This document shows, piece after piece, positions 8,175-45,500 of a DNA stretch of 45,658 nucleotides. A model generated the notes under the pieces. That model saw only the letters and a list, made by a program, of their open reading frames with translations. It made no database searches and was not told where the DNA came from. Numbering within the stretch: the first letter of the stretch is position 1; every line of letters starts with the position of its first letter. This DNA is from Thainema sp. (lineage in GTDB: Bacteria > Cyanobacteriota > Cyanobacteriia > Phormidesmidales > Phormidesmidaceae): the NCBI GenBank assembly GCA_052168235.1, contig JBQLZK010000061.1, positions 1 through 45,658 on the forward strand, written 5' to 3'. Both the position numbers and the translations under genes were made by a program.

Positions 8175-8187
8175 TATTAGGATTAAA

Positions 8188-8226: not shown

Positions 8227-8235
8227 CTAACCAAT

Positions 8236-9219: not shown

Positions 9220-9281
9220 GTTGTACTGTTCTCTGAACTATGGCTAATCAAGGTAAGAAGAGAGGCGTGAGGCGTTTTTAA

Positions 9282-17037: not shown

Positions 17038-18831
17038 ATGCGGGGCAGTAGGTTGACGACAATCGCAAAACATCGCGGATTTCAGACAGGACTGCTGCTG
17101 TTATGGTGTGCGATCGCACTTGTGCTGCGCTTCACCCATTTGGCGCAAAAACCGCTGTGGACGGACGAGTTTTCCACGCTGGTATTTGGCTTGGGACATA
17201 GCTTTCAAACCATTCCGCTGGATCAGCCAATCAGCACTGACGTACTGCTGGCACCGCTGCAACCGTTGCCGCTAACCGGAGTTGGGGCCGTTACCTATCA
17301 TTTATTCAGTGAAAGCAACCATCCGCCACTGTACTTCATATTGACCCATGAGTGGCTCAAGCTTTTTCCAATTGAGAATCCGTGGGTATTGACCTGGGCT
17401 GCGCGATCGCTATCGGCTTTGTTTGGGGTTTTGACTGTTCCAGCTATTTTTCTTTTAGGCTGGGTGACATTTCAATCGGTACTGATTGCCCAGCTAGCGG
17501 CGGCGCTGATGGCGGTTTCACCGTTTGGAATTTACATCGCTCAGGAAGCACGACACTACACGCTGCCGACGATGCTGGGTTCTCTCTCCCTTTGCTGTTT
17601 TGTGCAGGCAGTCCGAGCCATTTGCGATCGCACCCGTCTCAACCTGGGGCTGGTTCTGAGCTGGATTGGGCTGAATGCCTTGGGCATTGCCACCCACTAC
17701 TTTTTTGTTTTTGTGGTGACGGCACAGGGCATGGTGCTGCTGGGCTTTTTTCTGTGGCGCAGTTTGGGAACGATGTCTGAAAAGCCATCGAATAAGCTAT
17801 CCGAATTTTGGCAAAGCTGGAGCCGTCCACCCTGGTGGCACGTGTTTGCAGCCGGTCTAGGGACAGCGATTAGCGGTGCCGTCTGGCTACCCGTGATTCA
17901 AAGTGTGCAGGACGATGAGCTGACTTGGTGGATCTATCGGCTTGAAGGTCGCATCGGTCTAGACTGGCTGCAACCCGTGCTGGAAACCGTTGCGGGCGTT
18001 GCCACTATGTTTTTTCTACTGCCGATTCAGGGCACGACTAGAGCTGTTGAAATTGGCTCGATTGGCCTCATGCTGCTGCTGTTAATCTGGCTGGGCGGAG
18101 TTTGGATCAACGGCGTGCGGCAGTATGCCCAATTGCATCGATCAACCCAGCCGCAGGCGAGCCTGTGGGCCACTGGGGGCTTCTTAGCGGCTGCGATCGC
18201 ACTGATGTGGTTTCTATCCTATGCCTTCAATATGAGCCTGACCAATGGCTTTCGCTACAACTTTATCTATTATCCGGCTGCTATTTTACTGTTTGCCGTG
18301 GCGTTGGCCGCAGGTTGGCAAACGACGGGTGGGGGAATAGTGAGATCGCAGCGCTGGACGACTGTCGTAGTTCTGCTCTTGGGCATCGTGGGTAGTCTGG
18401 TGGTGGCGCTGGACTTTGGCTACCAAAAAACCCATCGGCCTGATTTAGTGGTGGATACGCTGTTACAGCAGTCTCAGGATCCGGTGGTGATGGCCATGTC
18501 GCATCAAACCCACGGTCAAACCGGACGCATGATGGGTATTGCGCTAGAACTCCAGCGACGCTCGGGAAATTTGCCGATTCAATCACCGCAGTATATTCTT
18601 GACCATTCTGTCTGCCAGTCCCGATATGATTTGTCCTGCTACAATCCCACTCCCAAACTCAAGGAAACGCTCGCCACGCTGCCGCGTCCCTTTGATCTGT
18701 GGCTGATGAACTACCATAGTGGCGCTAATCTGCGCGATGTCAACTGCGAACCTACAGCTCCCAATGAAACACGGCGCGTAGATGGCTATCGATTTTATCG
18801 ATATCGATGCCAACCGATGACGAAAGGCTGA
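17038..18831 (+). CDS. Membrane GT-C (GT39/PMT-like) glycosyltransferase
   Basis: LWTDEFST, SNHPPLYF, SPFGIYIAQEARHY, many TM segments; start uncertain (ORF open from 16987). Confidence 0.85.
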   Translation: MRGSRLTTIAKHRGFQTGLLLLWCAIALVLRFTHLAQKPLWTDEFSTLVFGLGHSFQTIPLDQPISTDVLLAPLQPLPLTGVGAVTYHLFSESNHPPLYFILTHEWLKLFPIENPWVLTWAARSLSALFGVLTVPAIFLLGWVTFQSVLIAQLAAALMAVSPFGIYIAQEARHYTLPTMLGSLSLCCFVQAVRAICDRTRLNLGLVLSWIGLNALGIATHYFFVFVVTAQGMVLLGFFLWRSLGTMSEKPSNKLSEFWQSWSRPPWWHVFAAGLGTAISGAVWLPVIQSVQDDELTWWIYRLEGRIGLDWLQPVLETVAGVATMFFLLPIQGTTRAVEIGSIGLMLLLLIWLGGVWINGVRQYAQLHRSTQPQASLWATGGFLAAAIALMWFLSYAFNMSLTNGFRYNFIYYPAAILLFAVALAAGWQTTGGGIVRSQRWTTVVVLLLGIVGSLVVALDFGYQKTHRPDLVVDTLLQQSQDPVVMAMSHQTHGQTGRMMGIALELQRRSGNLPIQSPQYILDHSVCQSRYDLSCYNPTPKLKETLATLPRPFDLWLMNYHSGANLRDVNCEPTAPNETRRVDGYRFYRYRCQPMTKG

Positions 18832-18844
18832 GGGTGATCAACTC

Positions 18845-33397: not shown

Positions 33398-33415
33398 GTG
33401 CTTGAGTGAGGCTGT

Positions 33416-33616
33416 TTAGAACAAGCCCAACCATTGGAAGAAACCTTGGCCAGTTACTAATTCAACGATTAGCGCACCGAGGAAGCCGACCATTGCTAGG
33501 CGACCATTCCAGAGTTCGGCGCTGGGGTTGGAACCGAATTCGAATTTGGTGCCATACTCGCCATAGGGACGACGAAACTGATCTTCGTAAGTTACGTTGT
33601 CTTGTGGGTTAGTCAT
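33416..33616 (-). CDS. High light-inducible protein (Hli/SCP, chlorophyll a/b-binding family)
   Basis: AELWNGRLAMVGF...VELVTGQG, single TM helix with ExxNxR motif. Confidence 0.95.
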   Translation of the reverse strand: MTNPQDNVTYEDQFRRPYGEYGTKFEFGSNPSAELWNGRLAMVGFLGALIVELVTGQGFFQWLGLF

Positions 33617-33916
33617 AATTGTCTGTCCTGAGTGTGTTCTGATTTATGACAGGTAGGTTTAGCTGGACGACAGAGCCGGATTGGTAGAACCTTGCTCTAG
33701 AGCAGCTTTGGCAAACCCAACTGCGTGTTGTTAATTAACTTAACAATCAGCTCTGCTGCACAAACTCTGTAATCAGAGAGAACAATTTAAAACCATTTTT
33801 CCCTCATCAGCTAGATCTGTGCTGAACTGTAGCCGTTGACACTGAAGCAGTTTTCAAGTGTAGCTAGCGCGATCGCACATTTCATTCCGGCTTCATTCAT
33901 AGCAGCAGCTTAAAGC

Positions 33917-33959
33917 GCGATCGCACTTGTGCATCTGGGGGAATGGAAAGTGCGATCGC
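33917..33959 (-). terminator. HIP1-based inverted repeat downstream of the CU044_2847-like gene
   Basis: gcgatcgcactt (33917-33928) / aagtgcgatcgc (33948-33959). Confidence 0.45.
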
Positions 33960-33974
33960 TATTCCAGGCACCGA

Positions 33975-34325
33975 TCAGTTTGATGTGGTTTGGCCTGGGA
34001 ATTTGCATTTGACTTGAACTTTGAAAGTGCCTTCGGCTGAACTTTCTGCTAAAACTGGCATTCCGGCTTTTCCCGCAATCTTGATATTGAACTCTAAGTT
34101 CATCTCTTCAATTTCCGCTAGACCAAAATTGACAAAGGCCCCAATCGCATATCTAGCATAGCCGCGAATTGTGCTGTGCACCTTCTTCATGTCGAGGGTA
34201 GGCAGGTTAATGTCACGGTAGCTGTCCTCATCGTCAGGTTCAACATCTGCGAGTTCTCCTGATTCAATGTAAAACTCATATTCCTCGCTACCGTCTTTGA
34301 CTACGAATTTTTGCAAATCTGACAT
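33975..34325 (-). CDS. CU044_2847 family / Trypco1-like peptidase co-occurring small protein
   Basis: 116 aa; acidic N terminus (EFYIES), helix TIRGYARYAIGAF, then EEMNLEFNIKIAGKAGMPVLAESSAEGTFKVQVKC (LEFxIKxxGxxGxP pattern); adjacent to a caspase gene. Confidence 0.75.
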   Translation of the reverse strand: MSDLQKFVVKDGSEEYEFYIESGELADVEPDDEDSYRDINLPTLDMKKVHSTIRGYARYAIGAFVNFGLAEIEEMNLEFNIKIAGKAGMPVLAESSAEGTFKVQVKCKFPGQTTSN

Positions 34326-34483
34326 GTGTGACCTCGTCATTAGAAAAGCAATTGGCAAAGTCACTTTAACTGTGCTAGAGGGACTATGAACCAAGAGGGT
34401 TTACAGAAATTTGAGTTTAAAGGATGGTGATCAGTGTGAAACCTAGTTATGCTGACTAAAACAGCAGCCTCACCAGCAGTAGC

Positions 34484-36781
34484 ATGGTTAAGTACGCACT
34501 TATCATTGGTATTAATCAATACGAAAACTTCTCAAATCTAAAGAGTGCAGCACAGGACGCTGAGACTGTAGCCCAACTATTAGAGCAACATCAGTATCAG
34601 GTGACAAGACTGCCCAGAAAATTGGTTAGCGAAAATCAATGGATAGTTGCACCTGATAAAAAGCTAGCTTATGACGAATTCAAAGATGAGCTGATCAAGT
34701 TCTTTCGGGAACGGGCAGAAAATCAAGAGGCTGTTTTATACTTTGCAGGTCACGGATTTCGCCTATTAGATGAACTAACGGAAGATCAAAAAGGCTTCTT
34801 AGCAACTTCTGACACAACGAAGGATGGCCAGAGTGCGATTCCATTCGACTCTCTCAATAAGCTGATGGGCCAAGCCCCTCTGAGTAGTCTCATGGTATTG
34901 ATGGATTGTTGTTATGCAGGAGCAATACTAAAAGAGAGACAAAACCTTTTACAACCGACTCAGACAACCTTAAGCCATAAGCATAATTCTTGTTTGATCG
35001 CAGCTTGTCGTGATTTTGAGCGTGCTAGAGAGAATAAAGAGCATGGTATTTTCACTGCTGCTGTGTTGCGAGGACTTTCAGCCGATAACGCGGTGCAGGG
35101 AGCAGTAACGAGTAATGATCTCTTTGGTTTTGTCGAGCGAGAACTCCGGAATAGTGGGCAAGAAGTGGTTCATGCCGGTATGGGAAGTGCAGTTACTCTT
35201 GTCACTTATCCCGATCCATTAGAGCTTTCGCTTAATCTACCAGCTAATACAGCCAAGGTATTTATCAGCTACCGGAGTCAACCGCCGGATTGTGATTTAG
35301 CAGAGAAATTTTACAAAGCACTGCGAGCTGAGGGCCATGAGGTCTTTATGGCGGCGGAAAGTATTCGTTTAGGTGATAACTGGTCGCAGCGAATTGATCA
35401 TGAATTAGAACAATGCGACTACTTTCTATTGTTATTGTCAGCCCAATCTGCTGTGAGTGAGATGGTGACTAAAGAGGTGCAGCGGGCAAAGGAGTTACGC
35501 GAAACCCGTGAATCTCGAAAGCCTGGAATTTTGCCAATCCGTGTTCAGTTTCCAATTAGCGGATCGATTAACTACGACCTGCAAGGATATCTCGACCAAA
35601 TACAGCAGCGGGAATGGAATTCAGCAGCGGACACTTCTAAGATTTTGGAAGAGGTGTTAACAATTTTAGCCGAGGAGCAAATTCCTGAATCTATAGCTTC
35701 ACAGACTGTTCCTGAGCCTTTAATTGATCATCCAGATAGTCCGCCAGTTCCTGTTGCACCACCAGAGTTACCTGGAGGACAAGTTGACTTAGCATCGCGT
35801 TACTACGTTGAGCGTCCTCCTATTGAAAAAAACTGTTACGAAACAATTTTAAAGCCAGGAGCCTTAATTAGAGTTAAGGCCCCTCGACAAATGGGTAAAA
35901 CATCGTTGATGTCGCGTATCCTGCATCATGCAGGAGAAAATCAGTATCTTACTGTGCCTTTGAGTTTTCAACTGGCCGATGCAGCAATCTTTGCTGATTT
36001 GGACAAATTTCTACGATGGTTTTGCGCCAGTATTGGACGACGGCTGCGACTACCTAATAAACTAGCCGATTATTGGGATGATATTTTTGGCAGCAAAGAC
36101 AACTGTACTGCTTATTTTGAAGAATATCTATTGCCAGAAATTTCTGCACCGTTGGTGTTGGGGTTAGATGAAGTAGATATGGTATTTGAGCATCCCAACA
36201 TTGCGGCAGATTTTATGGGATTGCTGCGAGCGTGGCATGAATCAGCCAAAGTAAATCAGCTTTGGAAGAAGCTACGATTGGTTGTAGTGCATTCAACAGA
36301 AGTTTATATTCCAATGAATATAAACCAGTCTCCCTTCAATGTTGGGTTACCTATTGAGCTAACAGAATTTACAGCAGCACAAATATTGGATTTATCACAA
36401 CGACATGGTTTGGAGTGGCGCAATGATGAAGTAAAGCAGTTAATGGCAATGGTAGGCGGACATCCTTATTTGCTGCGAGTAGCCCTTTACAAAATAGCAA
36501 GACAGGAAACAACTTTAGATGATTTACTCAAAGCTGCTCCTACTGAATCTGGGCCATATGGTGATCATCTACGTCGTCATCTATGGAACCTAGAACAACG
36601 ATCAGAAATGGCAGAAGCCACAAAACGAGTCATGCAATCAGCTCGTCCAGTTCGGCTTGAAGCAATTCAGGCATTTCAGTTACACAGTATGGGCGTTGTT
36701 CACCTAAGAGGGAATGAAGTATTCCCCCGCTGCAATTTGTACCGACAGTATTTTAATGATCGCCTCAGTGTTAGAAATTAA
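34484..36781 (+). CDS. Caspase (peptidase C14)-TIR-AAA_35 (STAND-like NTPase) protein
   Basis: [16 protein letters not shown] (His90), MDCC (Cys143), HGIFT; TIR KVFISY...[17 protein letters not shown] (Glu331); Walker [10 protein letters not shown], Walker B LGLDEVD, QSPFNVG, GGHPYL. Confidence 0.9.
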
Positions 36782-36807
36782 AGCTTAATATTCAGAAAAG
36801 CAAGCTT

Positions 36808-38415
36808 ATGAACTACGAAATCAATAAATATGAGTACCAAGTTGGGGGTAGCTTACCTGCAGAATCACCAACATACGTAAAACGAAAGGCAGATGATGAG
36901 CTTTTTGACAAACTTAAGGCAAGTGAATTTTGTTACGTGTTTAATTCACGCCAAATGGGCAAATCAAGTTTGCGAATCCGGGTGAAAAAGCGTTTAGAAT
37001 CTGAAGGAATTGTTTGTGGAGAACTTGATCTCCAGCAAATTGGAAGCCATGACCTAACTCCAGAACAGTGGTATGCAGGCGTTATAAGAAATTTATCTAG
37101 GAGTTTTCGTCTTCAGTCTCAAATAAATTTGCCGACTTGGTTGCGTGAAAGAAATCATCTATCTCCTGTTCAAAGACTATCAGAATTTATTGAAGATGTT
37201 CTTCTTAAGAAGATACCAGGAAAAATCGTTGTATTTATTGATGAAATCGACACAATTTTGGATCTCAATTTTCAAACTGATAGTTTTTTTGCTCTCATTC
37301 GGAATTTATTAGATGAGAGAGGCAGTAAGATGGCTTATGAACGAGTATCATTTTGTCTGCTTGGAGTTGCAATACCTAGCAGCTTAATTCAAGATAAATC
37401 TCGCACCCCATTTAATATAGGATACTCAATAGAGTTACAGGGTTTTCAGTTAAATGAGGCTGAACCACTGATTCATGGATTAAAATCTCATGCCGAAGAC
37501 CCACAAGCCGTAATGAGATCCATTTTAAAATGGACAGGAGGTCAGCCATTTTTAACTCAAAAGATATGCAATATAGTAACTAACAGCGCAGACATAATTT
37601 GCAAAAAAGACGAAGAAAATCGAATCAAAAAGATTATAAGCCTTTATATTACGAAGAACTGGAAGCAAAATGACGAGCCAATGCACCTCAGAGTTATTGA
37701 ACACCGAATACTTCAAAATCCTCAGAAAGCGAATCGTTTACTTAGCTTATACCAAAAAATCATTTTAAAGAGAAACAAGATTCTTATTGAAGAATCAGAG
37801 GAACAGCTTGAGCTTTCGCTTTCAGGACTAGTGGTGAAAAAAGGAGGAAAGCTAGAAGTTCAAAATAAAATATACAGAAAAGTTTTTTCTCAGGCATGGA
37901 TTAGAAGGAGCCTAGAAAATATACAGCCAAATCATAATAAATATATCAATTGGCTAAAATCCAACAAAAAAAATGAATTGTTGCTTCTGAGTGGAGAAGA
38001 ATTGAACTGCCTCCTAGAGTGGGCAGAAGATAAGGATCTAAGTTCACAGCTGTACTCCTATATATTAAGCAGTTTGCAGAAGCAAAAGGTTGAAATTGAA
38101 GCTGAATATAGGAAATTCCAGGGTTTGCTTTTGGTTGAAGAAAAGCTGAAAACTGATATCGAACAGAAGTCTTTAAAAGAAGTTAGTTCATATCAAGCCA
38201 GATTAGAGCAAGCCCTGAGTTTATTTAGGAAGTTTAGATATGTTCTTGTATTATCAATCATCATTCTGGTAACCAACGTAGCATCGTTGTTTTTTTATGT
38301 GAGTGAAGAAAGAATGAGTGTAATTTTAAGCATGCTATCTGCAATTTTGTTTAGTTCTTTGTCAGTGAAATTCATAAAAGAAATTATTGAAAAGCAACAA
38401 CAGAATATAACTTAA
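36808..38415 (+). CDS. AAA_35 NTPase with coiled coil and two C-terminal TM helices
   Basis: [47 protein letters not shown]; hydrophobic [21 protein letters not shown] and [16 protein letters not shown] at the C terminus. Confidence 0.88.
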
Positions 38416-38477
38416 AAGAAAGTGCCTGTACGGGTTTCATATCACATCGCGATTAAAGAGTAGTGAGGTGAAAAGTT

Positions 38478-41400
38478 ATGAGTGGCAATACTAACAACTA
38501 TGAATATCAAGTTGGTGGTAGTTTACCACCTAATTCACCAACCTATGTAAAACGGCGGGCAGATGATGATTTATATACAAAGCTTACAGCTGGTGAGTTT
38601 TGTTATGTACTGAACTCACGTCAAATGGGAAAGTCTAGTTTACGTGTGCAAACAATGCAGCGGTTAAAGGCTGAAGGAATTGCGTGTGCAGTAATTGATA
38701 TTACGGCTATTGGGAGTCAGAACATTAGTGCAGATCAATGGTATGCAGGAATAATTCGTAGTCTTACTACAAACTTTAATTTAGCACGAAAAGTTAATCT
38801 TCGAACTTGGCTACGCGAAAGAGATTTTTTGACTCCCATTCAGCGGCTAGGAGAATTTATTGAGTTTATTTTACTTGAAGAAATTGATCAACCTATAGTT
38901 GTTTTTATAGATGAGATTGATGGTGTACTCAGCTTTCAATTTTCCATTGATGATTTTTTTGCTTACATCCGTTTCTGTTCAAATCAACGTGTCGATAAAC
39001 CTATCTATAAAAAATTAACATTTTGTTTATTGGGTGTTGCGGCTCCAGCGGCTTTAATTCAAGATAAAAGACGAACACCGTTTAATATTGGTCATGCTAT
39101 TCCGTTAAGAGGTTTTCAATTTGACGAAGCACGATCATTGACTTTGGGACTACAAAAGAAAGCCGAAAATCCGGAATCCGTTCTCCAAGAAATTTTGGTT
39201 TGGACAGGGGGACAGCCTTTTTTAACTCAGAAAGTTTGCGATTTAGTGCGATCACTCAATGTGTTTATTCATACTAAAGATGAGGTGGCCAGCATTGCTC
39301 ATCTTGTGCGAACTCATATTATTGATAGCTGGGAAAATCAAGATGAGCCAGAGCATTTAAGAACTATCAGAGATAGATTGCTAAGCGATGAGAAAAAAAC
39401 GGGAAGCTTATTAAGTATCTATCAGCAGGTTTTACAAAAAGGATCAATTTATACCGATGGTAGTCAGGAGCAGACAGAATTACGTTTGTCAGGATTAGTA
39501 TTTGAGCAAAATGGAAAATTAAGAGTATATAATCGTATATACGAACTGATTTTTAGCAAAAATTGGATTGACTCAACTTTGGCTAATCTAAGACCCTACG
39601 CTGAAGCTTTAGCCGCTTGGATAAATTCTAGTTATACCGATAGTTCTCGCCTACTAAGAGGGCAAGCTCTACGAGATGCCTTAGTCTGGTCTTCTAACAA
39701 AAGTTTGAGCATTTCAGATTATAGTTTTTTATCTGCAAGTCAATCTCTAGAGAGAGAGATGATGCAGGCTGAGCTACGAGCTCAGCAAAAAGCTAATCGA
39801 ATTTTAGAAAAGGCAAAGCAGAAAGTAGAGCTAGCACTACAACAAGAACAGCAAGCAAAGCAGAAAATGCTTGAAGCAGAGCATCAATCAGCACAGGCAA
39901 TGCAAAGATTAGAACTTGCTTTGGAACAAGAAAGAAGGATTGAAGCCAAAGTATTAAAGTCAGAAAAGAAGTCTTTCCCAACTAAACACGACAAACACAA
40001 GAAAGATCGAACTCCTTTTGTGGGTTTTAGCATAGCCGTATTTCTCTTGGCAGCAGCGATTGGGCAACGGTTTTATAACGAACCCAAACTAACGGTTGGA
40101 ACAGTCGCTCCGCAGACCTTCGTTGCTCCTGAAAATGCTACTATCACCGATGAAGCAGCAACTGCGGAGCGGCGGCGTGCAGCAGAAAACGGTTCGCTTA
40201 AAATTCTTATGATTGATTCAGCTGCCGACCAAGCGATTTTGAATCGGCTCCAACAGCTTCTGAATCAGGGTACACAAATTCGGCAAAATCCAGAAATTCT
40301 TACACAAGAAGAACTGCAAGATTCTTCATTTTTTTATTTACATGGTGAAACATTACTCAATTTTTCTAGTGCGGAATGGTGGGAAACACAAACAGCTATC
40401 CGAGATATTGTTCAAGAAATACTTGCGGGAGGAATTGCTCAGGGTACTCCTGATTCAGTCTTACAGAGAGCCGTTGATTGGCAAGTTGAGTCATCTGTTC
40501 CTGCAAAAGCACAGTCTTTCGCAACTAAATTGATTTTGGAGGTGCTAAAACCCAATCTAATTGAAGATTCAGAGCAGACGCGGATGGCAGCGCAACGGGC
40601 AGCGCAAGCGGTTGATCCGGTTCAGTACACTGTGCAGGAGGGGGGCACTATCGTGGCCGTGGGTGAGGAAATCACCCAGGAAACCTTTGTTGTTTTGGAC
40701 TATTTTGGCCTCAGTCGTCGGGGAGTAAATTGGATTGGCTTTGTTGGCTTTGGCATTGCGATCACAGGTTCAGTGACGCTCTTTCTTTGGGTTGAGCAGA
40801 CATTTTATTTAGGCTTACGTCACCGCGATCACATTCTGCTCTTTCTCTTAGCGCTCAGCACTCCCGTTGTAGCAGTCGTCAACAGCTCAATTGTGACCTT
40901 ACCCGCTGTGGGACTCCTGACGGGTAGCTTCTATGGGTCAATCTTGAGCGTTACCGTGGTTGGCCTGCTGGCAGTGCTGCTGCCGATTGGGCTCGAACTG
41001 AGCATGGTGCCCTTCATTGCAGCGGCAGCAGGTGGCATTGTGGGCGGCATCATGGCGGGGCGGTTGCGATCGCGAGAAGAACTGGCGCTGTTGGGTGGAG
41101 CCGTAGGCTTGACCCAAGCGGTTGTTTATCTGCTGCTGACGCTGATTTTCACCGGCGGTAGCAGTCCCATTTGGTATTTGCTCATTGCTAATTCTGCTTG
41201 GCATGGCTTTATAGGGCTGGCTTGGAGCGTGGTGGCGCTGGGGATTAGCCCGTATTTAGAGCATGTATTCGACTTGGTTACGGCCATTCGACTGGCTGAA
41301 CTGTCCAATCCCAATCGCCCGCTGCTCAAGCGATTTGCCTATGAGGCTCCGGGTACATTCCAACATACAATGTTTGTCGCCTCTTTAGCTGAAGCGGCAG

Positions 41401-41996
41401 CGCGAGCATTGAACTGCAATGTGGAACTGGTGCGGGCAGGCACGCTCTACCATGACATCGGCAAGATGCACGATCCGCTGGGCTTTATTGAAAATCAGAT
41501 GGGTGGCCCCAACAAGCACGACGAAATTAATGACCCTTGGAAAAGTGCAGTCATTATCAAGAAGAATGTAACCGAAGGAATTGTGATGGCGAAAAAGTGC
41601 CGTCTGCCTAAGGCGGTACGAGCCTTTATTCCTGAGCATCAGGGTACAATGCTGATCACTTACTTCTACCATCAAGCCCAGCAGATGGCCGAAACCGATT
41701 CCACTATCATCTTGAATGAGCAAGACTTTCGGTATGATGGCCCTATTCCCCAATCCCGTGAAACTGGCATTGTGATGTCAGCTCATTACTGCGCAAAATC
41801 ACTACGACTGCTTAAAGCTTTTGATCCTATTGAAGCTCTAAAGGCAGTTCATCAAGTGTTACAGTATCTTGATAAGGATGGACAACTTCTAGATTCAGGT
41901 CTTCGTCAAAAAGAACTAGATCAGATTGCTGACATCTTTGTACAGGTTTGGTTACAGTCTCAGTGGAGCGGGAATTTGCTGAGTACTTCTAAATGA
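38478..41996 (+). CDS. AAA_35 NTPase-coiled coil fused to a PgpH-like 7TM-HD (HDIG) module
   Basis: Same AAA_35 motifs; Q/E/A/K-rich coiled coil; from ~40006 a TM, QRFYNEPKL, extracellular region, multiple TMs, RLAELSNPNRPLL, APGTFQH, YHDIGK, FIENQ, EHQGT, FRYDGPIPQSRETGIVM; single uninterrupted 1172-aa ORF. Confidence 0.9.
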   Translation: MSGNTNNYEYQVGGSLPPNSPTYVKRRADDDLYTKLTAGEFCYVLNSRQMGKSSLRVQTMQRLKAEGIACAVIDITAIGSQNISADQWYAGIIRSLTTNFNLARKVNLRTWLRERDFLTPIQRLGEFIEFILLEEIDQPIVVFIDEIDGVLSFQFSIDDFFAYIRFCSNQRVDKPIYKKLTFCLLGVAAPAALIQDKRRTPFNIGHAIPLRGFQFDEARSLTLGLQKKAENPESVLQEILVWTGGQPFLTQKVCDLVRSLNVFIHTKDEVASIAHLVRTHIIDSWENQDEPEHLRTIRDRLLSDEKKTGSLLSIYQQVLQKGSIYTDGSQEQTELRLSGLVFEQNGKLRVYNRIYELIFSKNWIDSTLANLRPYAEALAAWINSSYTDSSRLLRGQALRDALVWSSNKSLSISDYSFLSASQSLEREMMQAELRAQQKANRILEKAKQKVELALQQEQQAKQKMLEAEHQSAQAMQRLELALEQERRIEAKVLKSEKKSFPTKHDKHKKDRTPFVGFSIAVFLLAAAIGQRFYNEPKLTVGTVAPQTFVAPENATITDEAATAERRRAAENGSLKILMIDSAADQAILNRLQQLLNQGTQIRQNPEILTQEELQDSSFFYLHGETLLNFSSAEWWETQTAIRDIVQEILAGGIAQGTPDSVLQRAVDWQVESSVPAKAQSFATKLILEVLKPNLIEDSEQTRMAAQRAAQAVDPVQYTVQEGGTIVAVGEEITQETFVVLDYFGLSRRGVNWIGFVGFGIAITGSVTLFLWVEQTFYLGLRHRDHILLFLLALSTPVVAVVNSSIVTLPAVGLLTGSFYGSILSVTVVGLLAVLLPIGLELSMVPFIAAAAGGIVGGIMAGRLRSREELALLGGAVGLTQAVVYLLLTLIFTGGSSPIWYLLIANSAWHGFIGLAWSVVALGISPYLEHVFDLVTAIRLAELSNPNRPLLKRFAYEAPGTFQHTMFVASLAEAAARALNCNVELVRAGTLYHDIGKMHDPLGFIENQMGGPNKHDEINDPWKSAVIIKKNVTEGIVMAKKCRLPKAVRAFIPEHQGTMLITYFYHQAQQMAETDSTIILNEQDFRYDGPIPQSRETGIVMSAHYCAKSLRLLKAFDPIEALKAVHQVLQYLDKDGQLLDSGLRQKELDQIADIFVQVWLQSQWSGNLLSTSK

Positions 41997-42065
41997 TAGG
42001 CGGTGTTTATTAGCAGTTCTTGCTGGTTTTTAGTTGCTTTAGTTTTGATTGTCAGTAACCTCGTA

Positions 42066-42094
42066 TTGACTCCACCGGGCAAATCCCGTACTGT
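42066..42094 (+). promoter_or_regulatory. Sigma70-type promoter
   Basis: TTGACT (42066-42071) - 17 nt - TACTGT (42089-42094); predicted start near 42101, immediately before a hairpin. Confidence 0.7.
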
Positions 42095-42100
42095 GAAACG

Positions 42101-42335
42101 TTAAGTTGTCGAGCGAACCATCACCAAATCGCCTCGACAGCCGGACACCAGAAATCTAGTCAACGCCACCCAGAGTTGCTGGCACAACCCTGAGCGGCTG
42201 ACCTGCTAAACGTTGGAACTAGCAACGCGCAGGCTTGGGTAATTGTAGCCTCAGCCGCTCTGCATTGCACTTCAAAGTTGCAGGGGGGCTAGGTTTTTGG
42301 CTTTCCTCCGAACGTCAAAAACCAAAGGAAACACA
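42101..42335 (+). ncRNA. Candidate structured cis-regulatory leader RNA
   Basis: Complementary segments 42105-42116/42129-42141, 42148-42159/42289-42300, 42192-42201/42251-42260, 42202-42206/42229-42233, 42292-42301/42314-42323, and anti-SD 42302-42307 / SD 42326-42331. Confidence 0.55.
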
Positions 42336-42620
42336 ATGACATACTTAATCTCTGGTGCTGCTCCCCACGCAGCGCCACAGCCTCGCGCGGCTCATCCTGA
42401 CCAGCCCCAGCGCCACGGTCGCCATCCGCTGCGGATTATCCTGCTCGGCACCCGCCCCGACATCATTGTCACGATCAAAAACCTGCATCGACGCGGCTTT
42501 GCCGAAGCGAACGAGTGGAGCCAACCGATCCCCTGTCCCAGTGCAGGCGACGTGGCGCGAATTCTGGCTCAGCGGCAACCGGATGATCAAATCAGCATCC
42601 TCACCCGCTATCTCAGCTAG
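42336..42620 (+). CDS. Small hypothetical protein (94 aa)
   Basis: RBS aaagga before ATG 42336; RHPLRIILLG...TIKNLHRRGFAEANEWSQPIP...ISILTRY resembles a recurrent cyanobacterial hypothetical family (from memory, not searched). Confidence 0.75.
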   Translation: MTYLISGAAPHAAPQPRAAHPDQPQRHGRHPLRIILLGTRPDIIVTIKNLHRRGFAEANEWSQPIPCPSAGDVARILAQRQPDDQISILTRYLS

Positions 42621-42622
42621 TT

Positions 42623-42970
42623 GCCCTCACCCTAAATCCCTCTCCCAGTGCGGGCTACTGCTTATATACAAGCCTTCTAGACTTCGTTTTGACATTGAGA
42701 TCCCCCTAAATCCCCCTTAAAAAGGGGGAACCTGCTCAAAGTTCCCCCTTACTTCGTTTTGACATTGAGATCCCCCCTAGCCCCCCTTAAAAAAGGGGGA
42801 ACCTGCTCAAAGTTCCCCCTTTTTAAGGGGGATTTAGGGGGATCAGTCAGGGTTTAGAAGAACCACTTAGATGTGTATAAACAGTAGCCCAGTGCGGGAA
42901 AGGGACTTTGAAAGACCAACCTTCTGGCTCTCCTTCTCCTGTGGGGGAAAGGGCTGGGGGATGAGGGCAA
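42623..42970. repeat. Outer dispersed hairpin repeat split by an inner MITE
   Basis: gccctcaccctaaatccctctccc... and ...gggaaagggactttgaa...gggctgggggatgagggcaa; the halves rejoin at cccagtgcggg. Confidence 0.75.
42654..42888. mobile_element. MITE-like element with TIRs, target-site duplication and internal 70-bp tandem duplication
   Basis: Ends gctactgcttatataca / tgtgtataaacagtagc; flanking direct repeat cccagtgcggg (42644-42654 and 42888-42898; 9-11 bp depending on end choice); duplicated unit at 42681-42750 and 42751-42821. Confidence 0.8.
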
Positions 42971-43291
42971 TTAAACAAATTCTCTCCTGTGATAGAGAGA
43001 CAATTAGGGGAAAAAGACCGAATCTAAAATATCGAAACTCCATCGAACAACTCCTATCAGTCATCATCTGCGAGTCGGTGATTCGGGTTGCTCGTGAGTT
43101 GCCAAATCTACCTGTGAAAACCAACGTGAATTCCGTAGAAGTCCCGCCGCGCGAGACTCCCATGAAATTCAACTTTCAAGTTTTGCAGTTGATTGAGCAG
43201 CCGAGCAGATAGGACAACAACCAGTTCAAACGACATCAGCGGCCAGGAATTCAGTTTCCTGGCCCTTCTCTATAAAAGCAACATTACATAC

Positions 43292-45412
43292 ATGCTTGTA
43301 TTTTTAGTTGAACCCATTTCAGAAACACTCCAGGAGCCGATTACCACCTTCGCGCTGCTGATTGCGATTGTCCTGATTACGCCGCCGCTGTTTGAGCGGA
43401 TTAAGCTGCCCGGACTGGTGGGCCTGTTGGCCGCAGGCGTCTTATTTGGTGGCAGTGGTTTAGGCTGGCTCAACGCCGACTCCGAAACCATGAAGCTGTT
43501 TTCCGAAATCGGCAAAATCTACCTGATGTTTGTGGCAGGACTAGAAATTGACCTGGCCCTGTTCCAAAAAACGCGCAACCGCTCAATGGGCTTCGGCTTC
43601 TTGACCTTTGCCATTCCCCTACTGGGCGGCATCGGCATCGGTTTGCTGTTTGGCTTTGGCTGGCTGGCTGCTGTCCTAATTGGTTCACTGCTAGCTTCCC
43701 ACACGCTGCTGGCCTATCCCATCGTGCAGCGACTCGGCGTCGTCGGTGATGAAGCCGTCACCGTCACCGTGGGCGCAACTATCTTCACCGATATCGGTTC
43801 GCTGCTGGTGCTGGCGATCTGCTTGGGGATTAGCCAAGGCGACTTTTCGGCCTTGAAGCTAATCACGCTGCTGGGGTCGCTGGCACTATATGCGATCGCA
43901 GTTTTATTTGGCCTTAAGCAGCTCGGTAAAGCCTTTTTCCGCCGTACGGGCAAAGATGAGGGCAACCAGTTCCTATTTGTCATGCTCTCTGTCTTTCTCT
44001 GTGCCCTGGTCGCTCAGCTCATCGGTGTTGAAAATATCATTGGTGCTTTCCTGGCCGGACTCGCGATCAATAGCGTGATTGGCGATGGCCCCGTGAAGGA
44101 AAAAACGGAGTTTATGGGCAGCGTCCTGTTTATTCCGCTGTTTTTCGTCAATATGGGACTGCTGCTGGATCTGAATGCTTTTGAGAGTATTCTGTCCTCA
44201 GTTGAGTTGCCTCTACTGGTTGTCGCCGTACTGCTATTGACCAAGCTGTTGGCGACGCTGGGTGCGCGGCAGATGTTTCACTACTCCTGGCCGCAAACCT
44301 GGACAATGTGGTCACTCTCCATTCCGCAAGTTGCGGCAACGCTGGCGGCAGCACTGGTGGGTTATGAAGCGGAAATTATTAACTCGCAGGTCTTCAACAG
44401 CGTCATTTTGCTGATGCTGGTCACGGCCATTCTGGGGCCGTTGGTCACGGCCAATGCCGCGCGGCAACTGGCGGTACAGGAATCATTTGATGAGCATGAG
44501 CTGCTTGACTGGTTGCCGCCACCCAGCGACATTCCCGAATCGTTCTCCATTGTGGTGCCCGTTTATAACCCCAATACGGAGCATTCGCTGATCGAGCTGG
44601 CCGCTACCGTTGCCCGCTACAAAAATGGCCGCGTCATTCCCTTAGCCATTGCCCTTGCCCAACCCCAGATGGATTCTCCCCAGCTGGCTCGTGCTGTTGC
44701 CCTCAGTCGGCAGCGACTGGAAGCAGCGCAGATGATCAGCGAAAAGTTTGAGGCCAATATTGACCCCAAGCTGAGAATTGAATACAACGTGGCTCAGGCG
44801 GTTTGCCACGTCAGCCGCGAAGAAAACGCCAATCTGATTATCCTGGGCATGGGGCAGCAGGCTAGATTTAACCGCTATCTGTTCAGCAATATCCAAGACG
44901 ATGTGCTGTGGGCGGCTCACTGTCCGGTGATTGTGGCGCGGCTGCTGGAGTCACCAACTCAGTTCAAATCCATCTTGGTGCCGATTGAAAATCCATCCAT
45001 GCTGGCCTTACGGGCGCTGCGATTTGCCCAGGTACTTGCGGCAGCGAACGAGGGACAAATTACGCTGCTGCACGTTTGCAGTCCACGCGCCTCTCAAATT
45101 CGTAAAACCCGCTTGCAGAAGCAGCTTGAGACGCTGGTGGATCGGCTGCCTGCCGCAAATTGTCCAATCAACATTCAGCTACTGGCTTGCGACAATGTGG
45201 TTAGCACGATTGCGAAAAATGCACAGGATCATGACTTGGTGATTCTGCGATCGCAGCGTCGCCGCAGCGGGAATGGTCTAACCATTGGTGCAAACACCAC
45301 GCCGCTACTGGAACGGCTCAACGGATCGGTGATTCTAGTCGGTGAACCGCATCCCCAGCGGGTGCTGCGTCCAATTCGCCGCAATGCCTTACCGAATTTG
45401 ATGCCTGTTTGA
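43292..45412 (+). CDS. Cation:proton antiporter (CPA2/Kef-type, NhaS5-like) with C-terminal USP domains
   Basis: LPGLVGLL, LMFVAGLEID, ASHTLLAYPI, TIFTD, IIGAFLAGLA, FIPLFFVNMG, QVAATLAA; two USP-like repeats (IVVPVYNP...AHCPVIVAR; ILVPIEN...); ATG 43292 preferred. Confidence 0.92.
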   Translation: MLVFLVEPISETLQEPITTFALLIAIVLITPPLFERIKLPGLVGLLAAGVLFGGSGLGWLNADSETMKLFSEIGKIYLMFVAGLEIDLALFQKTRNRSMGFGFLTFAIPLLGGIGIGLLFGFGWLAAVLIGSLLASHTLLAYPIVQRLGVVGDEAVTVTVGATIFTDIGSLLVLAICLGISQGDFSALKLITLLGSLALYAIAVLFGLKQLGKAFFRRTGKDEGNQFLFVMLSVFLCALVAQLIGVENIIGAFLAGLAINSVIGDGPVKEKTEFMGSVLFIPLFFVNMGLLLDLNAFESILSSVELPLLVVAVLLLTKLLATLGARQMFHYSWPQTWTMWSLSIPQVAATLAAALVGYEAEIINSQVFNSVILLMLVTAILGPLVTANAARQLAVQESFDEHELLDWLPPPSDIPESFSIVVPVYNPNTEHSLIELAATVARYKNGRVIPLAIALAQPQMDSPQLARAVALSRQRLEAAQMISEKFEANIDPKLRIEYNVAQAVCHVSREENANLIILGMGQQARFNRYLFSNIQDDVLWAAHCPVIVARLLESPTQFKSILVPIENPSMLALRALRFAQVLAAANEGQITLLHVCSPRASQIRKTRLQKQLETLVDRLPAANCPINIQLLACDNVVSTIAKNAQDHDLVILRSQRRRSGNGLTIGANTTPLLERLNGSVILVGEPHPQRVLRPIRRNALPNLMPV

Positions 45413-45416
45413 TATA

Positions 45417-45500
45417 GCCCTCATCCCCCAGCCCCTTCTCCCAAAATGGGCGAAGGGGAACCGAAACTATAGCCTGCTCAAAGTCCCTCTCCTACTCTGG
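45417..45500. repeat. Second copy of the outer hairpin repeat, inverted relative to the first and again interrupted
   Basis: gccctcatcccccagccc is the reverse complement of 42951-42968; the copy ends at tccctctcctactctgg. Confidence 0.7.

Follow-up and report, generated by a model that had tools for sequence, protein, structure and literature searches.

A four-gene locus in a low-GC island

The locus occupies 33975..41996 of contig JBQLZK010000061.1 (positions 1 to 45,658, the whole stretch analysed and hereafter the window) of Thainema sp. (GCA_052168235.1). It comprises one gene on the minus strand and three on the plus strand, the latter separated by gaps of 26 and 62 nt. P0001 (33975..34325, minus strand) encodes a protein of 116 aa, counted from an ATG, that belongs to the Pepco (Trypco1/CU044_2847) family and is predicted to be a latent β-barrel pore-forming effector. 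P0002 (34484..36781, plus strand) encodes a 765-aa protein, which we term the A-type or output subunit; on it, Pfam placed a C14 caspase (Peptidase_C14) domain at residues 3–222 (34490..35149), a TIR domain (TIR_2) at residues 259–357 (35258..35554) and a canonical AAA_35 NTPase at residues 430–758 (35771..36757; 511 bits), all on the plus strand. P0003 (36808..38415) and P0004 (38478..41996), both on the plus strand, encode B-type subunits of 535 and 1172 aa, hereafter B1 and B2. Each starts with a divergent AAA_35 NTPase, which is followed in B1 by a long helix and a C-terminal hairpin of two transmembrane (TM) segments and in B2 by a helical linker, a first TM helix (TM1) and a PgpH-like module. 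Walker A (GKT or GKS) and Walker B (DE) motifs are kept in all three NTPases. A previous reading of the sequence alone had described these four genes with their domains, gaps and catalytic residues, and ORF, Pfam and motif checks bore out the description; with ORFs this long and family matches this strong, chance is not an issue for the four-gene observation. Promoter and terminator scans of the locus revealed no enrichment over shuffled sequence.

The whole locus lies within a variable, low-GC genomic island (33960..42049) that is absent from a same-genus genome (G001). The flanks, 33415–33959 and 42050–45492, match contig C16 of G001 at 87–95% identity, and the sequence between them has no match on that contig; in G001, this site is occupied by a NACHT-GUN4 gene together with small ORFs. 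Island genes have a GC content of 0.35–0.44 and a GC3 of 0.26–0.35, compared with a genome GC of 0.50, and the gene island is horizontally acquired. Its right border is formed by a multi-copy repeat of ~600 bp (42050..42647, plus strand) that lies outside the system, holds a 94-aa ORF (42338–42622) and has no match in Pfam or Rfam. The same genome harbours 10 further copies with 75–83% identity over at least 90% of the length and 4 additional shorter pieces of 190–480 bp, and G001 has at least 9 copies.

A Pepco gene next to a caspase gene

P0001 matches Trypco1 (Pfam PF19493, E = 4e-15) and was assigned to CU044_2847_fam (NCBIfam NF041216). Its longest ORF (33975–34394, minus strand) begins with TTG and would yield 139 aa, but the ATG at 34325 seems the more likely start; the orthologue in locus L050 has 117 aa and is about 78–82% identical (78% over the full length). 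The names Trypco1 and Trypco2 are those of Kaur et al. (2020, eLife e52696). The Trypco-like gene had been taken for an adaptor, a role that does not hold: Evans et al. (2025, bioRxiv 10.1101/2025.11.14.688446) describe Trypco1 as 'Pepco', a latent β-barrel pore toxin activated by a neighbouring protease, and report phage-protein-dependent toxicity of Pepco–protease modules. The pair tested there was SsPepco and trypsin-Avs4 of Streptomyces subrutilus, and a ~2 kDa tail of the tested Pepco was removed after an Ile. Part of the locus thus matches a named, characterised module, an outcome that the sequence-only reading had itself counted against its proposal, and the Pepco half is a member of a described and tested class. 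Caspase-associated Pepco proteins have a conserved KCKFP followed by a very short variable tail (~7 residues) instead of this ~2 kDa tail, so the cleavage logic may differ.

Gene neighbourhoods link Pepco to proteases. In the window, Pepco and the A gene that bears the protease are divergent neighbours; in L050, Pepco lies co-directionally upstream of the adjacent A gene with its protease, and in L070 it is upstream of a trypsin-A gene. Elsewhere in the Thainema genome, Pepco is found downstream of genes for a CHAT-TIR-A protein and a B-WD40 protein (contig C33) and divergent from the caspase gene of a caspase–nSTAND1 module (C30), and four of the five Trypco1 genes in this genome stand beside a protease gene. 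A Pepco HMM matched three times among 45 loci, always within the 8 protease-bearing loci, two of the three matches having served as seeds of the model. Pepco is nevertheless not an obligatory partner, because it was present in just 4 of 9 protease-bearing A loci and none was found in L054, L078, L056, L063 or L037, of which L056 and L063 are truncated where their contigs stop. From these neighbourhoods we infer that the P0002 caspase cleaves P0001.

Output and sensor subunits of the AAA_35 pairs

The residues H90, C143 and E331 of P0002 are at the positions given by the previous reading. The caspase His and Cys are conserved in C14 and CHAT relatives. E331, the putative catalytic Glu, is shared by 22 of the 24 A-type proteins with a TIR domain that were aligned. 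The TIR domain would deplete NAD+ or synthesise a nucleotide signal. Its scores against Thoeris-type models were far under the cut-offs, which counts against the mechanism proposed below. Over residues 1–763, P0002 is 76% identical to its L050 orthologue. Pfam detected no sensor domain in P0002, where the AAA_35 match stops 7 residues short of the stop codon. PADLOC gave no system-level match to the locus: its models matched the caspase and TIR domain of P0002, with a weak, partial PDC-S27 match on the NTPase region and a weak, partial Cas3b match on the HD region of P0004.

In B1, the AAA_35 domain spans residues 14–361 (106 bits, Pfam), and a crude hydropathy scan placed two TM-like segments at the C terminus (470–488 and 505–523). 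An AlphaFold2 model (pLDDT 85, pTM 0.74) has helices at 413–491 and 503–534, and Foldseek matched it best to SSO1545 (2fna, E = 2.5e-9), followed by 2qen, ORC/Cdc6, NRC4, Avs4, MalT and CED-4. No sensor domain was recognisable in B1, a second point against the proposed mechanism. B2, which shares 48% identity with B1 across 467 residues, has Pfam matches to AAA_35 (14–360, 104 bits), 7TMR-HDED (540–747), 7TM-7TMR_HD (752–935) and HD (960–1076); the same crude scan detected 6 TM-like segments, TM1 being 512–530, compared with 8 expected. At least one TM-like segment is present in 25 of 32 B partners, mostly at residues 450–510, and in 113 of 149 B-type representatives. The effector/sensor logic that had been read from the locus is therefore present in its genes, with caspase and TIR on one NTPase without a sensor and membrane modules on the other two.

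The genome contains 18 AAA_35 matches, all within 8 A/B loci, each with one high-scoring A protein (355–514 bits, variable N terminus) and one or two low-scoring B proteins (83–131 bits, variable sensor end). A-type proteins combine outputs with a canonical NTPase and no sensor, and B-type proteins a divergent NTPase with a membrane or sensor module; the three AAA_35 genes of the window are one case of a widespread A/B pairing, of which we found no description in the literature. The four-gene arrangement is not unique: it is one of the 8 A/B loci, another of which has Pepco with CHAT-TIR, and Nodosilinea nodulosa PCC 7104 carries an orthologous Pepco/caspase-TIR-A/B locus.

We compared 35 loci related to P0002. 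In 23 of them, A is followed by a co-directional B, and in 3 B is convergent; a contig end lies within ~1.4 kb in 7, and the remaining 2 (L068 and L081) have no B although their contigs continue for at least 4 kb downstream. Of 18 multi-module database proteins inspected, 3 are single-chain A-then-B fusions (P0150, P0214 and P0199) and 11 are B-B tandems. Distances between A and between B NTPases were correlated across 21 loci (r = 0.84, reached by 0 of 5000 permutations), but conserved order and correlated divergence are expected for any adjacent co-inherited genes and are no proof of contact. A predicted complex of A (residues 425–765) with B2 (1–400) passed weakly, with a median score of 0.60 compared with 0.00 for the best of 3 controls, contact agreement between runs of at least 72% and partner pLDDT of at least 83. 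In the reference sets, 116 of 157 solved complexes passed the mark, as did 2 of 215 mismatched pairs; at a score of 0.60 or less it was passed by just 18 of the 157 plus both of these mismatches, counts that hold roughly because the alignments used here were our own. Together, gene order, fusions, correlated divergence and the weak pass speak for the earlier idea of hetero-assembly, in which A and B would form mixed oligomers.

A degenerate PgpH module in B2

Over its C-terminal 660 residues, B2 has the complete 7TMR-HDED, 7TM and HD architecture. This part shares 84% identity across 560 residues with the stand-alone PgpH homologue of the genome (contig C5), relative to which B2 lacks ~93 extracellular-domain residues. 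Over the last 67 residues, the identity of B2 to homologues is only 45%, in a stretch that is otherwise 79–96% conserved among them. At residue 1103 (codon 41784..41786, plus strand), B2 reads IVMSAHYCAKS instead of IVMLADSCEAA, in a segment that aligns to SDSVEAA of Listeria PgpH (PDB 4s1b); all 32 stand-alone homologues have Asp at this position. His1103 thus replaces the last Asp of the H..HD..D motif, so the HD domain is not fully intact; the 7TM-HD module itself is present as described. At least one H..HD..D residue is lost in all 3 AAA_35–PgpH fusions compared with 0 of 32 stand-alone homologues, and the C-terminal segments of the fusions reach at best 40–54% identity to any other aligned sequence, whereas identities between stand-alone pairs have their median at 76% and go no lower than 57%. 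Given the lost catalytic Asp, a receptor or decoy that does not hydrolyse is a better reading of the 7TM-HD part of B2 than a working phosphodiesterase, and its HD domain is improbable as an enzyme.

Comparison with the C5 gene revealed gene conversion. The main tract (residues 693–912; 40554..41213, plus strand) was copied from this housekeeping PgpH-like gene, with 92–100% nucleotide and 75–100% third-position identity, compared with 40–73% and 20–55% just upstream; nucleotide comparison also revealed a second, patchier tract at residues 953–1072 (41334–41693, plus strand). Relative to C5, residues 691–940 have a dS of 0.20–0.37 and host-like GC3, whereas dS is saturated and GC3 is 0.28–0.31 in their flanks; dN/dS inside the main tract is 0.02–0.07. 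The B2 module is thus an old, diverged copy of a housekeeping PgpH, partly overwritten by conversion from the resident gene. Because the parts outside the tract are anciently diverged and have island-like low GC3, the fusion is older than the conversion. Among the 120 proteins listed, the same architecture was found only in P0009 and P0010, as checked with Pfam; across 400 other cyanobacterial genomes sampled, the fusion was not seen. The PgpH halves of P0009 and P0010, both degenerate, group with different stand-alone lineages and their NTPase halves are not mutual nearest relatives; the fusion arose independently at least twice more.

Relation to known systems

The locus resembles Pepco–protease modules in placing a Trypco1-family protein of ~117 aa beside a protease with intact catalytic residues that is fused to a STAND-type NTPase, and in its cyanobacterial setting. 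It differs from them in that the protease is a C14 caspase rather than trypsin, TIR is on the same chain, the AAA_35 of the protease has no sensor, sensors sit on two separate paralogous NTPases and the putatively cleaved Pepco tail has ~7 residues after the conserved core.

Single-chain STAND proteins (Avs1–4, bNACHT and Apaf-1/CED-4-like caspase-NTPase-WD40 proteins) share the effector, oligomerising NTPase and sensor logic as well as caspase and TIR effectors, and the B1 model matches the NTPase folds of Avs4 (8dgf), Avs3 (8dgc) and CED-4. Unlike them, the locus splits this architecture over A and B, which both have an NTPase of their own from the AAA_35/SSO1545-like branch, and its sensors are membrane-embedded or extracytoplasmic instead of cytosolic repeat domains. 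Among the PADLOC models, none for Avs or NLR proteins matched the locus.

Paired NLRs of eukaryotes include the NAIP–NLRC4 inflammasome, plant sensor/helper pairs and the integrated-decoy pairs RGA5/RGA4 and RRS1/RPS4. As a functional analogy only, both have adjacent related NOD genes of which one senses and one executes, and a sensor with a host-protein-derived domain, here PgpH. There is no specific sequence kinship beyond the STAND superfamily, the domains differ, and the locus has its putative sensors in the membrane, with two sensor paralogues per executor.

The nSTAND2 system is described by Kaur et al. (2021, eLife e70394) as a mobile two-gene operon whose products both have STAND cores, are predicted to form a hetero-multimer and include one partner with eroded NTP-binding motifs and a GT4 or HEPN effector. 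Paired STAND cores with the effector on one product are common to both; by that account, nSTAND2 lies near CR-ATPases and S29/Dap3 rather than AAA_35, and the present locus keeps Walker A and B in three NTPases and has caspase, TIR and Pepco effectors. Last, B2 shares the full architecture of PgpH (Lmo1466; PDB 4s1b/4s1c) but has it fused behind an AAA_35 NTPase, with the last motif Asp replaced.

Proposed mechanism and alternatives

We consider it somewhat more probable than not that the island encodes a split, NLR-like regulated-death switch of the STAND, AAA_35 type. P0002 would be the output subunit, and B1 and B2 input subunits with AAA_35 tied to the membrane by a helical stalk, through two helices only in B1 and through a PgpH-derived 7TM-HD anchor with a crippled catalytic site in B2. 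A signal at or in the membrane would reach a B subunit and switch its NTPase, which would nucleate a hetero-oligomer with the A NTPase. Clustering would activate the caspase domains, which would then cleave P0001 in its C-terminal tail and so let its pre-formed β-barrel permeabilise the membrane, and clustered TIR domains would act on NAD+ or produce their signal. The dead HD of B2 would most likely serve as a binding receptor for c-di-AMP, a related nucleotide or whatever touches PgpH. The role of the switch would be anti-phage defence or another kind of conflict.

The same parts and wiring could instead serve physiology or development, as a device of the general cyanobacterial A/B AAA_35 family that couples stress to death or to signalling. 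We regard this as unlikely, if the strongest of the alternatives; the PgpH-derived receptor of such a device would read envelope, osmotic or second-messenger (c-di-AMP) state. Many A-type relatives have non-lethal outputs, with cyclase-TIR in 6 loci and a sigma-70 region-4 HTH plus TIR in 2, and the C77 locus of the same genome has an HTH output. B sensors include GAF, PAS/dCache/HAMP, HisKA-HATPase, CHASE2 and peptidoglycan-binding domains, most B types being membrane receptors with the variable domain after the TM helix, unlike Avs-type cytosolic sensors of phage proteins. The PgpH homologues (PDB 4s1b match) act as phosphodiesterases on c-di-AMP, and 6 of the 7 other A/B loci resemble the rest of the genome in composition (GC3 0.44–0.63). 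This locus, in contrast, is a compositionally foreign island that replaces the NACHT-GUN4 gene of the same-genus genome, and its PCC 7104 orthologue adjoins a TrwC relaxase. Caspase, Pepco and TIR all count as hallmark effectors of conflict, and toxicity in the tested Pepco–protease modules depended on phage proteins.

It is more doubtful still that A and B are separate, with B acting as independent membrane receptors or distant regulators, A self-assembling on another trigger, and the system consisting of Pepco and A, to which the two B genes would be bystanders in a shared operon. The weak complex prediction and the two loci with A but no B agree with this, as does free swapping of B partners: the A of the window is closest to that of L050 (83% in the NTPase), and B2 is only 59% identical to the L050 B, no closer than to others (up to 63%). 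Against it, A lacks any sensor domain, all 8 A genes in the genome have a B neighbour with no orphan B, A-then-B fusions exist, and L050 has overlapping stop and start codons (12310 and 12313). That B2 is a non-functional accidental chimera formed by recombination with resident pgpH, leaving Pepco, A and B1 as the working unit, is very improbable: recombination with C5 did occur, the fusion is missing from the 400 sampled genomes and the catalytic Asp is lost, but the fusion predates the conversion, the 1172-codon frame is intact, dN/dS is low inside the tract and the architecture arose at least two more times.

The split switch remains our preferred reading of this island. The A/B AAA_35 family overall is a signalling switch and is not dedicated to defence.

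Anatomy of the four-gene locus

Contig C61, complete at 45,658 bp within the 7.54-Mb assembly of this cyanobacterium (G000), carries the four ORFs at the positions that the sequence-only reading had claimed: P0001 (33975..34325, minus strand) and, on the plus strand with spacings of 26 and 62 nt, P0002 (34484..36781), P0003 (36808..38415) and P0004 (38478..41996). P0001 matched Trypco1 in Pfam (PF19493; E 4e-15, 56.7 bits against a cut-off of 24.6) and CU044_2847_fam in NCBIfam. Pfam matches of the plus-strand proteins comprised Peptidase_C14, TIR_2 and AAA_35 (511 bits) in P0002, AAA_35 (106 bits) in P0003, and AAA_35 (104 bits), 7TMR-HDED, 7TM-7TMR_HD and HD in P0004, which also matched the NCBIfam model HDIG (TIGR00277, 81.8 bits); all three AAA_35 scores exceed the gathering cut-off of 27 bits. 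Residues H90, C143 and E331 and the Walker A and B motifs of all three NTPases were found where that reading had placed them, as were, by a crude hydropathy scan, two TM-like segments at the C-terminal end of P0003. The Walker A and B motifs read QMGKTS and GLDEVD in P0002 (hereafter A), and QMGKSS and FIDEID in both P0003 (B1) and P0004 (B2). Both motifs are kept throughout the 24 A-type proteins aligned, and E331 is kept in 22 of 24 aligned TIR-bearing relatives.

The proposed check against PADLOC (PADLOC-DB v2.0.0) was run and matched only caspase and TIR domain models, on P0002, besides weak partial matches to PDC-S27 (E 0.006) at the NTPase region of P0002 and to Cas3b (E 0.0005) at part of the HD domain of P0004. 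P0001 and P0003 had no match in this database, and no Avs or NLR-type model was matched. The ThsB model (E 1e-8) covered the TIR part of P0002 alone, and the scores of this TIR against the ThsB and ThcB4 models fell far under the cut-offs (44.5 bits against 220). Whereas Thoeris joins a ThsB-type TIR to a ThsA gene (SIR2 or Macro, SLOG), Pfam found no ThsA-like domain in the four genes. The locus also differs from classical NLR or Avs proteins, which are tripartite single chains: by Pfam, the one-chain effector–NTPase–sensor layout is absent, and its parts are split over A (effectors and NTPase) and over B1 and B2 (NTPase and membrane module). A sequence search of solved structures returned nothing for P0003 and a weak TIR match alone for P0002 (7uxr, E 0.004). 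The window held no tRNA gene or Rfam family. Consensus scans bearing on co-transcription turned up 7 promoter-like and 7 terminator-like sites, where 17.4 and 8.8, respectively, were expected.

AAA_35 NTPases are encoded as A/B pairs

All 18 AAA_35 matches of the G000 genome sit in eight loci. Each locus has one A gene (355–514 bits), in which a canonical C-terminal AAA_35 domain follows a caspase-TIR, CHAT-TIR, TIR, HTH-like or unknown N-terminus, and one B gene (83–131 bits), except for the two at C61. The B proteins end in WD40 repeats (three loci), three GAF domains or nothing recognisable, and one of them has a dCache-HAMP-PAS block ahead of the NTPase; A and B NTPases share about 22% identity. 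At the locus on contig C105 (8355-15762; L018), a 509-aa TPS (two-partner secretion) domain protein is encoded between A and B, and the GC content is low like that of the C61 island.

The same pairing recurs among relatives of P0002, for which 35 loci were compared and B genes were placed by tblastn. A is followed by B on the same strand in 23 of the 35 loci and B is convergent with A in three; two (L068 and L081) have no B despite at least 4 kb of sequence downstream of A, and in seven no more than about 1.4 kb of contig lies beyond A. Outputs of A in these loci were caspase-TIR (1), CHAT-TIR (3), trypsin (2), cyclase-TIR (6), sigma-70 region 4 with TIR (2), TIR alone (7), a C-terminal cyclase (1), and unknown or none (11), with two ORFs cut off by a contig end. 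Sensors of the corresponding B proteins included TPR, WD40, HisKA-HATPase, kinase-AAA_16-GAF and unannotated multi-TM blocks, to which database relatives add, among the matches listed, CHASE2 and peptidoglycan-binding domains. By a crude hydropathy scan, 25 of 32 B partners have one or more TM-like segments, which fall mostly at residues 450–510, right after the NTPase and a helical stalk; 113 of 149 B-type representatives also have at least one. Because most of them have such segments, B proteins look, from sequence, like transmembrane receptors. The family is very large: searching with P0003 retrieved 9142 representative clusters at E ≤ 0.001, a number that falls to 4304 at E ≤ 1e-30.

Pepco and its protease neighbours

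The Trypco1 gene P0001 had been taken for an adaptor, an assignment that we abandon: according to a recent preprint, Trypco1 is Pepco, an effector family (Evans et al. 2025, bioRxiv 10.1101/2025.11.14.688446). Trypco1 and Trypco2 were originally named as small proteins co-occurring with trypsin-like peptidases (Kaur et al. 2020) and were renamed Pepco in the preprint. The latter reports that a Streptomyces Pepco has 117 aa, forms stable 9–10-mer beta-barrels and becomes a membrane-permeabilising toxin when its C-terminal tail is cut off by an adjacent protease-STAND protein.

P0001 has 116 aa if the ATG at 34325 is its start, and aligns end to end, at 78% identity, with its 117-aa orthologue from Nodosilinea nodulosa PCC 7104 (L050); its tail past the conserved KCKFP is merely 6–7 residues long. 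It is divergent from its neighbour P0002, whose Peptidase_C14 domain retains H90 and C143. The protease of P0002 is fused to the AAA_35 NTPase, 7 residues past which the chain stops, and candidate sensors reside on the separate B1 and B2.

Adjacency of Pepco and protease recurs at L050, at L070 and at the C33 locus of G000. Five Trypco1 genes occur in G000, four of them beside a protease gene: on C61 (caspase-TIR-AAA_35), on C33 (in the order CHAT-TIR-AAA_35, AAA_35-WD40, Pepco), on C58 (an 870-aa trypsin-like protein) and on C30 (caspase-nSTAND1-pentapeptide, divergent as well). The fifth, on C53 (46282-46860; L092 5283-5861), encodes a 192-aa protein with only the C-terminal two-thirds of the Trypco1 domain; its neighbours are a NAD kinase and a histidine phosphatase, and no protease was found among neighbouring ORFs of at least 150 aa. 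The C33 locus (43326-49890; L019) is a second Pepco-linked A/B system with host-like GC, in which CHAT-TIR-AAA_35 (736 aa), AAA_35-WD40 (1341 aa) and, 28 nt downstream, Pepco all lie on one strand. An HMM built from the G000 and L050 Pepco copies matched 3 of 45 loci (L050, L070 and L019), all within the eight loci with a protease-bearing A; since L050 and L019 were among its seeds, only L070 is an independent match. The model had no match at the protease-bearing loci L054, L078, L056, L063 and L037, of which L056 and L063 are cut by contig ends.

A and B as probable parts of one machine

We lean towards a model in which B subunits are the membrane inputs and A is the executor, and in which A/B hetero-oligomers fire the caspase/Pepco and TIR outputs. 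An activated B NTPase would nucleate the hetero-oligomers; clustered caspase would cleave Pepco into an active pore, and clustered TIR domains would deplete NAD+ or synthesize a signal. B2 would read c-di-AMP or the state of PgpH, or an envelope signal. B1, which has an anchor only, may pair with B2, as proteins with tandem B modules suggest, or may report membrane perturbation. The same machine, with the same outputs, could instead serve stress-triggered or developmental death or signalling and not phage defence, an alternative that we regard as rather unlikely.

That A and B might not belong to one complex appears improbable, and several observations bear on the point, the first being the conserved order of the A and B genes. 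Among 18 multi-module database proteins that were dissected, three join an A-type and then a B-type NTPase in a single chain (P0150, with TIR in front, P0214 and P0199), 11 carry two or three tandem B-type NTPases, and four carry one B module followed by partial repeats. Two or three complete B-type AAA_35 modules per polypeptide are found in P0126, P0011, P0129, P0132 and others, and P0128, P0131, P0133 and P0134 have one B module and then 2–5 partial repeats of about 150–190 residues. The two adjacent B genes at C61 have a parallel in the B–B tandem proteins; one other locus besides C61, L069, also has two B genes, behind a cyclase-TIR-A gene. Across 21 loci the A and B NTPase distances are correlated (r = 0.84, reached in none of 5000 permutations; r = 0.74 with the most divergent locus removed), which is weak evidence of contact because adjacent genes share history.

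Structure prediction of a complex of A residues 425–765 with B2 residues 1–400 lent weak support, with a median score of 0.60 against 0.00 for the best of three controls, at least 72% of contacts agreeing between runs and partner pLDDT of at least 83. In the benchmark, 116 of 157 solved complexes but just 2 of 215 mismatches passed the mark for a predicted complex; at scores of 0.60 or under, only 18 of the 157 solved complexes did so, along with both passing mismatches. These counts hold only roughly for the A–B2 complex because its alignments were custom-built. B1, the sole NTPase modelled alone, gave an AlphaFold2 model with pLDDT 85 and pTM 0.74. Its Foldseek matches were STAND and ORC-type NTPases, the best being SSO1545 (2fna, E 2.5e-9), followed by 2qen, archaeal and eukaryotic ORC/Cdc6, NRC4 resistosome subunits, Avs4, Avs3, MalT and CED-4; as modelled, B1 would have the NTPase, helical and winged-helix fold of solved STAND or ORC proteins. 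We considered whether B1 and B2 are a recent tandem duplicate and rejected this: they share 48–51% identity, and B2 is nearer (57–63%) to database B types with other sensors.

B2 carries a PgpH-derived module with converted tracts

The domain order of B2, 7TMR-HDED, 7TM-7TMR_HD and HD, is that of PgpH-type phosphodiesterases. Whereas these stand alone at about 800–950 aa, the B2 module is fused behind 500 residues of AAA_35 and linker. G000 has a separate, stand-alone PgpH-like gene on contig C5 (867 aa), to which B2 residues 602–1160 are 84% identical, in a mosaic manner. Residues 691–940 share 98% of amino acids with the C5 protein at a dS of 0.20–0.37 and a host-like GC3 (about 0.56 over 691–1098). 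In residues 505–690 and 1099–1165, amino acid identity is 52–66% and 45%, dS is saturated and GC3 is 0.31 and 0.28, respectively; in both of these flanking segments the C5 protein is 74–96% identical to its orthologue in the same-genus genome G001. A 20-codon sliding window placed a sharp left tract edge at B2 residue 693 (nt 40554). The tract over residues 693–912 has 92–100% nucleotide identity to the C5 gene, including 120 identical bases, and a patchier second tract spans residues 953–1072. We read this pattern as an island that arrived with an old, diverged PgpH-derived module, whose 7TM core was probably later overwritten by the resident gene through gene conversion. Recent duplication or misassembly as the source of the module was rejected: the flanks are dS-saturated with island GC3, and the tract is not uniformly identical. 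In a quick tree, the unconverted parts of B2 form a long-branched sister of the PgpH clade of its own genus (SH-aLRT 99).

PgpH also lies near A/B genes in two genomes, and only these among the genomes listed. In G001 (L035, C21:42000-61999), the housekeeping PgpH gene (848 aa) immediately precedes an A/B pair (473 and 519 aa) and a radical SAM gene; in G040 (L036, C23), PgpH and a B-type gene are about 5 kb apart. The orthologous A/B pair of G000, on C13, is no longer beside PgpH, which is on C5. Taken with the fusions, such proximity points tentatively to a wider link between PgpH and AAA_35.

Recurrent capture of PgpH by B-type NTPases

A search with the junction region covered 5.8 billion proteins and gave 535 matches among 8000 scored candidates, of which 120 were listed. 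Among the matches listed, Pfam found a full PgpH module joined to AAA_35 in two other proteins, P0009 (1183 aa) and P0010 (1087 aa, in a cluster whose contigs span only 3.3–4.5 kb). No match spanned both halves in 40 relatives, or among the best 150 of 340 rows from 400 sampled genomes of the class; a candidate in G078 proved to be a 1122-aa ORF without an AAA_35 domain. A single origin of the three fusions is supported by neither half in a quick tree and in sequence identities. Because the PgpH halves of P0009 and P0010 are nearest to different stand-alone lineages and their NTPase halves are not nearest relatives of each other, the fusion appears to have arisen at least three times.

The HD active site is degenerate in each case. 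With Listeria PgpH (4s1b) as the reference for motif positions, each of the three fusions lacks one or more residues of H..HD..D, and all are kept in the 32 stand-alone homologues of the same alignment. The last Asp of this motif is a metal ligand in the HD superfamily; it is replaced by His1103 in P0004 and by Ala in P0010. The first His is Gln in both P0009 and P0010, and a further conserved His is Asn in P0009 and a further His Asp in P0010. In the C-terminal segment, the best identity of a fusion to any other sequence in the alignment is 40–54%, against a median identity of 76% for stand-alone pairs, none of which falls under 57%. Given the lost motif residues and the diverged C-terminal segments, the fused modules resemble pseudoenzymes retained for binding or mimicry.

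B2 could further serve, within a sensor/executor NLR-like pair, as an integrated decoy that mimics PgpH, its resemblance upheld by gene conversion from the housekeeping gene. In that case the cell's own c-di-AMP phosphodiesterase would have been copied, in catalytically dead form, onto a STAND-type NTPase, and a phage or competitor factor attacking PgpH or c-di-AMP signalling would hit B2 and unleash the caspase/Pepco/TIR executor. Independent capture of PgpH by B-type NTPases in at least three lineages, with catalytic residues lost each time, speaks for this proposal, which we nevertheless judge doubtful; if true, PgpH capture would be a recurrent guard strategy and the first bacterial parallel to plant NLR-ID pairs. 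That B2, with its lost metal ligand and its converted core, is simply a dead chimera is very unlikely.

The locus as a foreign island

Contig C16 of G001 matches the window at 33415-33959 on the left and at 42050-45492 on the right of the locus, and has a NACHT-GUN4 gene and a few small ORFs in place of the four genes. There (L044, G001:C16:20000-38000), ORF 6800-9280 encodes the 826-aa NACHT-GUN4 protein, accompanied by a retropepsin-like 138-aa ORF and two small ORFs. Since G001 bears NACHT-GUN4 where the window has the four-gene island, the site behaves as a hotspot for NLR-like genes. The island genes have a GC of 0.35–0.44 and a GC3 of 0.26–0.35, against a genome GC of 0.50; GC3 is host-like (0.44–0.63) in six of the seven other A/B loci of G000, C105 being the other low one. 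The four-gene locus is a foreign island.

At the left border (33866-33959), three HIP1-type GCGATCGC palindromes lie in nested inverted repeats; an inverted-repeat search around Pepco found these and a single 12-nt pair, nothing more. At the right border, a repeat of about 600 bp (42050-42647) contains a 94-aa ORF (42338-42622). G000 has 10 further copies of it at 75–83% identity over at least 90% of the length and four shorter pieces, and G001 has at least nine copies; its terminal 25–35 bases (about 42615-42647) occur on their own at many further sites. Pfam and Rfam searches with this repeat gave no match; it could represent a small mobile element not yet classified, or a gene family present in multiple copies.

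In PCC 7104 (L050), an orthologous operon of Pepco, caspase-TIR-A and a B protein with TPR (1626 aa) adjoins a TrwC relaxase. The stop of A overlaps the start of B, and Pepco is co-directional, in contrast to its divergent orientation in the window. An invertible Pepco segment, considered for this difference in orientation, was dropped; homology to L050 is limited to the ORF. Carriage of the PCC 7104 operon on a conjugative element is suggested by its flanking genes, which encode a TrwC relaxase-helicase (L050 6711-9401) and a DUF6908-MutS_I protein (18737-20896).

Discussion

The claim that the four-gene arrangement is undescribed stands in part. The searched portions of the literature, including Kaur 2020, Doré 2024 and a 2026 Nature STAND survey, hold no description of A/B pairs; one paper names the Npun2340 family, but only as a central NTPase. 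The A/B split of AAA_35 NTPases is apparently undescribed in print. Already known were PgpH itself, STAND proteins with TIR or caspase effectors, and the Pepco–protease module, for which tests were reported in 2025. New are a version with death effectors and a pair of B genes, the repeated uptake and inactivation of PgpH as a sensor module, and gene conversion from a housekeeping gene; such conversion, between a gene of this kind and its copy on a mobile island, is an unusual evolutionary observation.

To our knowledge, the bacterial NLR-like immune proteins studied to date are single chains uniting sensor, switch and effector. By analogy, the AAA_35 A/B family would resemble animal NAIP–NLRC4 and plant sensor/helper NLR pairs, in which sensor and executor are on separate paralogous NTPases. 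The C61 locus is the easiest A/B instance to test, with readable outputs (caspase cleavage of Pepco, pore formation and NAD+ loss) and two alternative or cooperating sensors, one of them from an enzyme with known ligands: c-di-AMP and also ppGpp, a further ligand of a PgpH-type enzyme. With these outputs, sensors and known-enzyme origin, the locus therefore offers a direct route to asking how a signal passes between paralogous NTPases in a split STAND switch, what membrane-embedded bacterial NLR-like receptors sense, and whether host-protein-derived decoys or pseudoenzymes serve as bacterial immune sensors.
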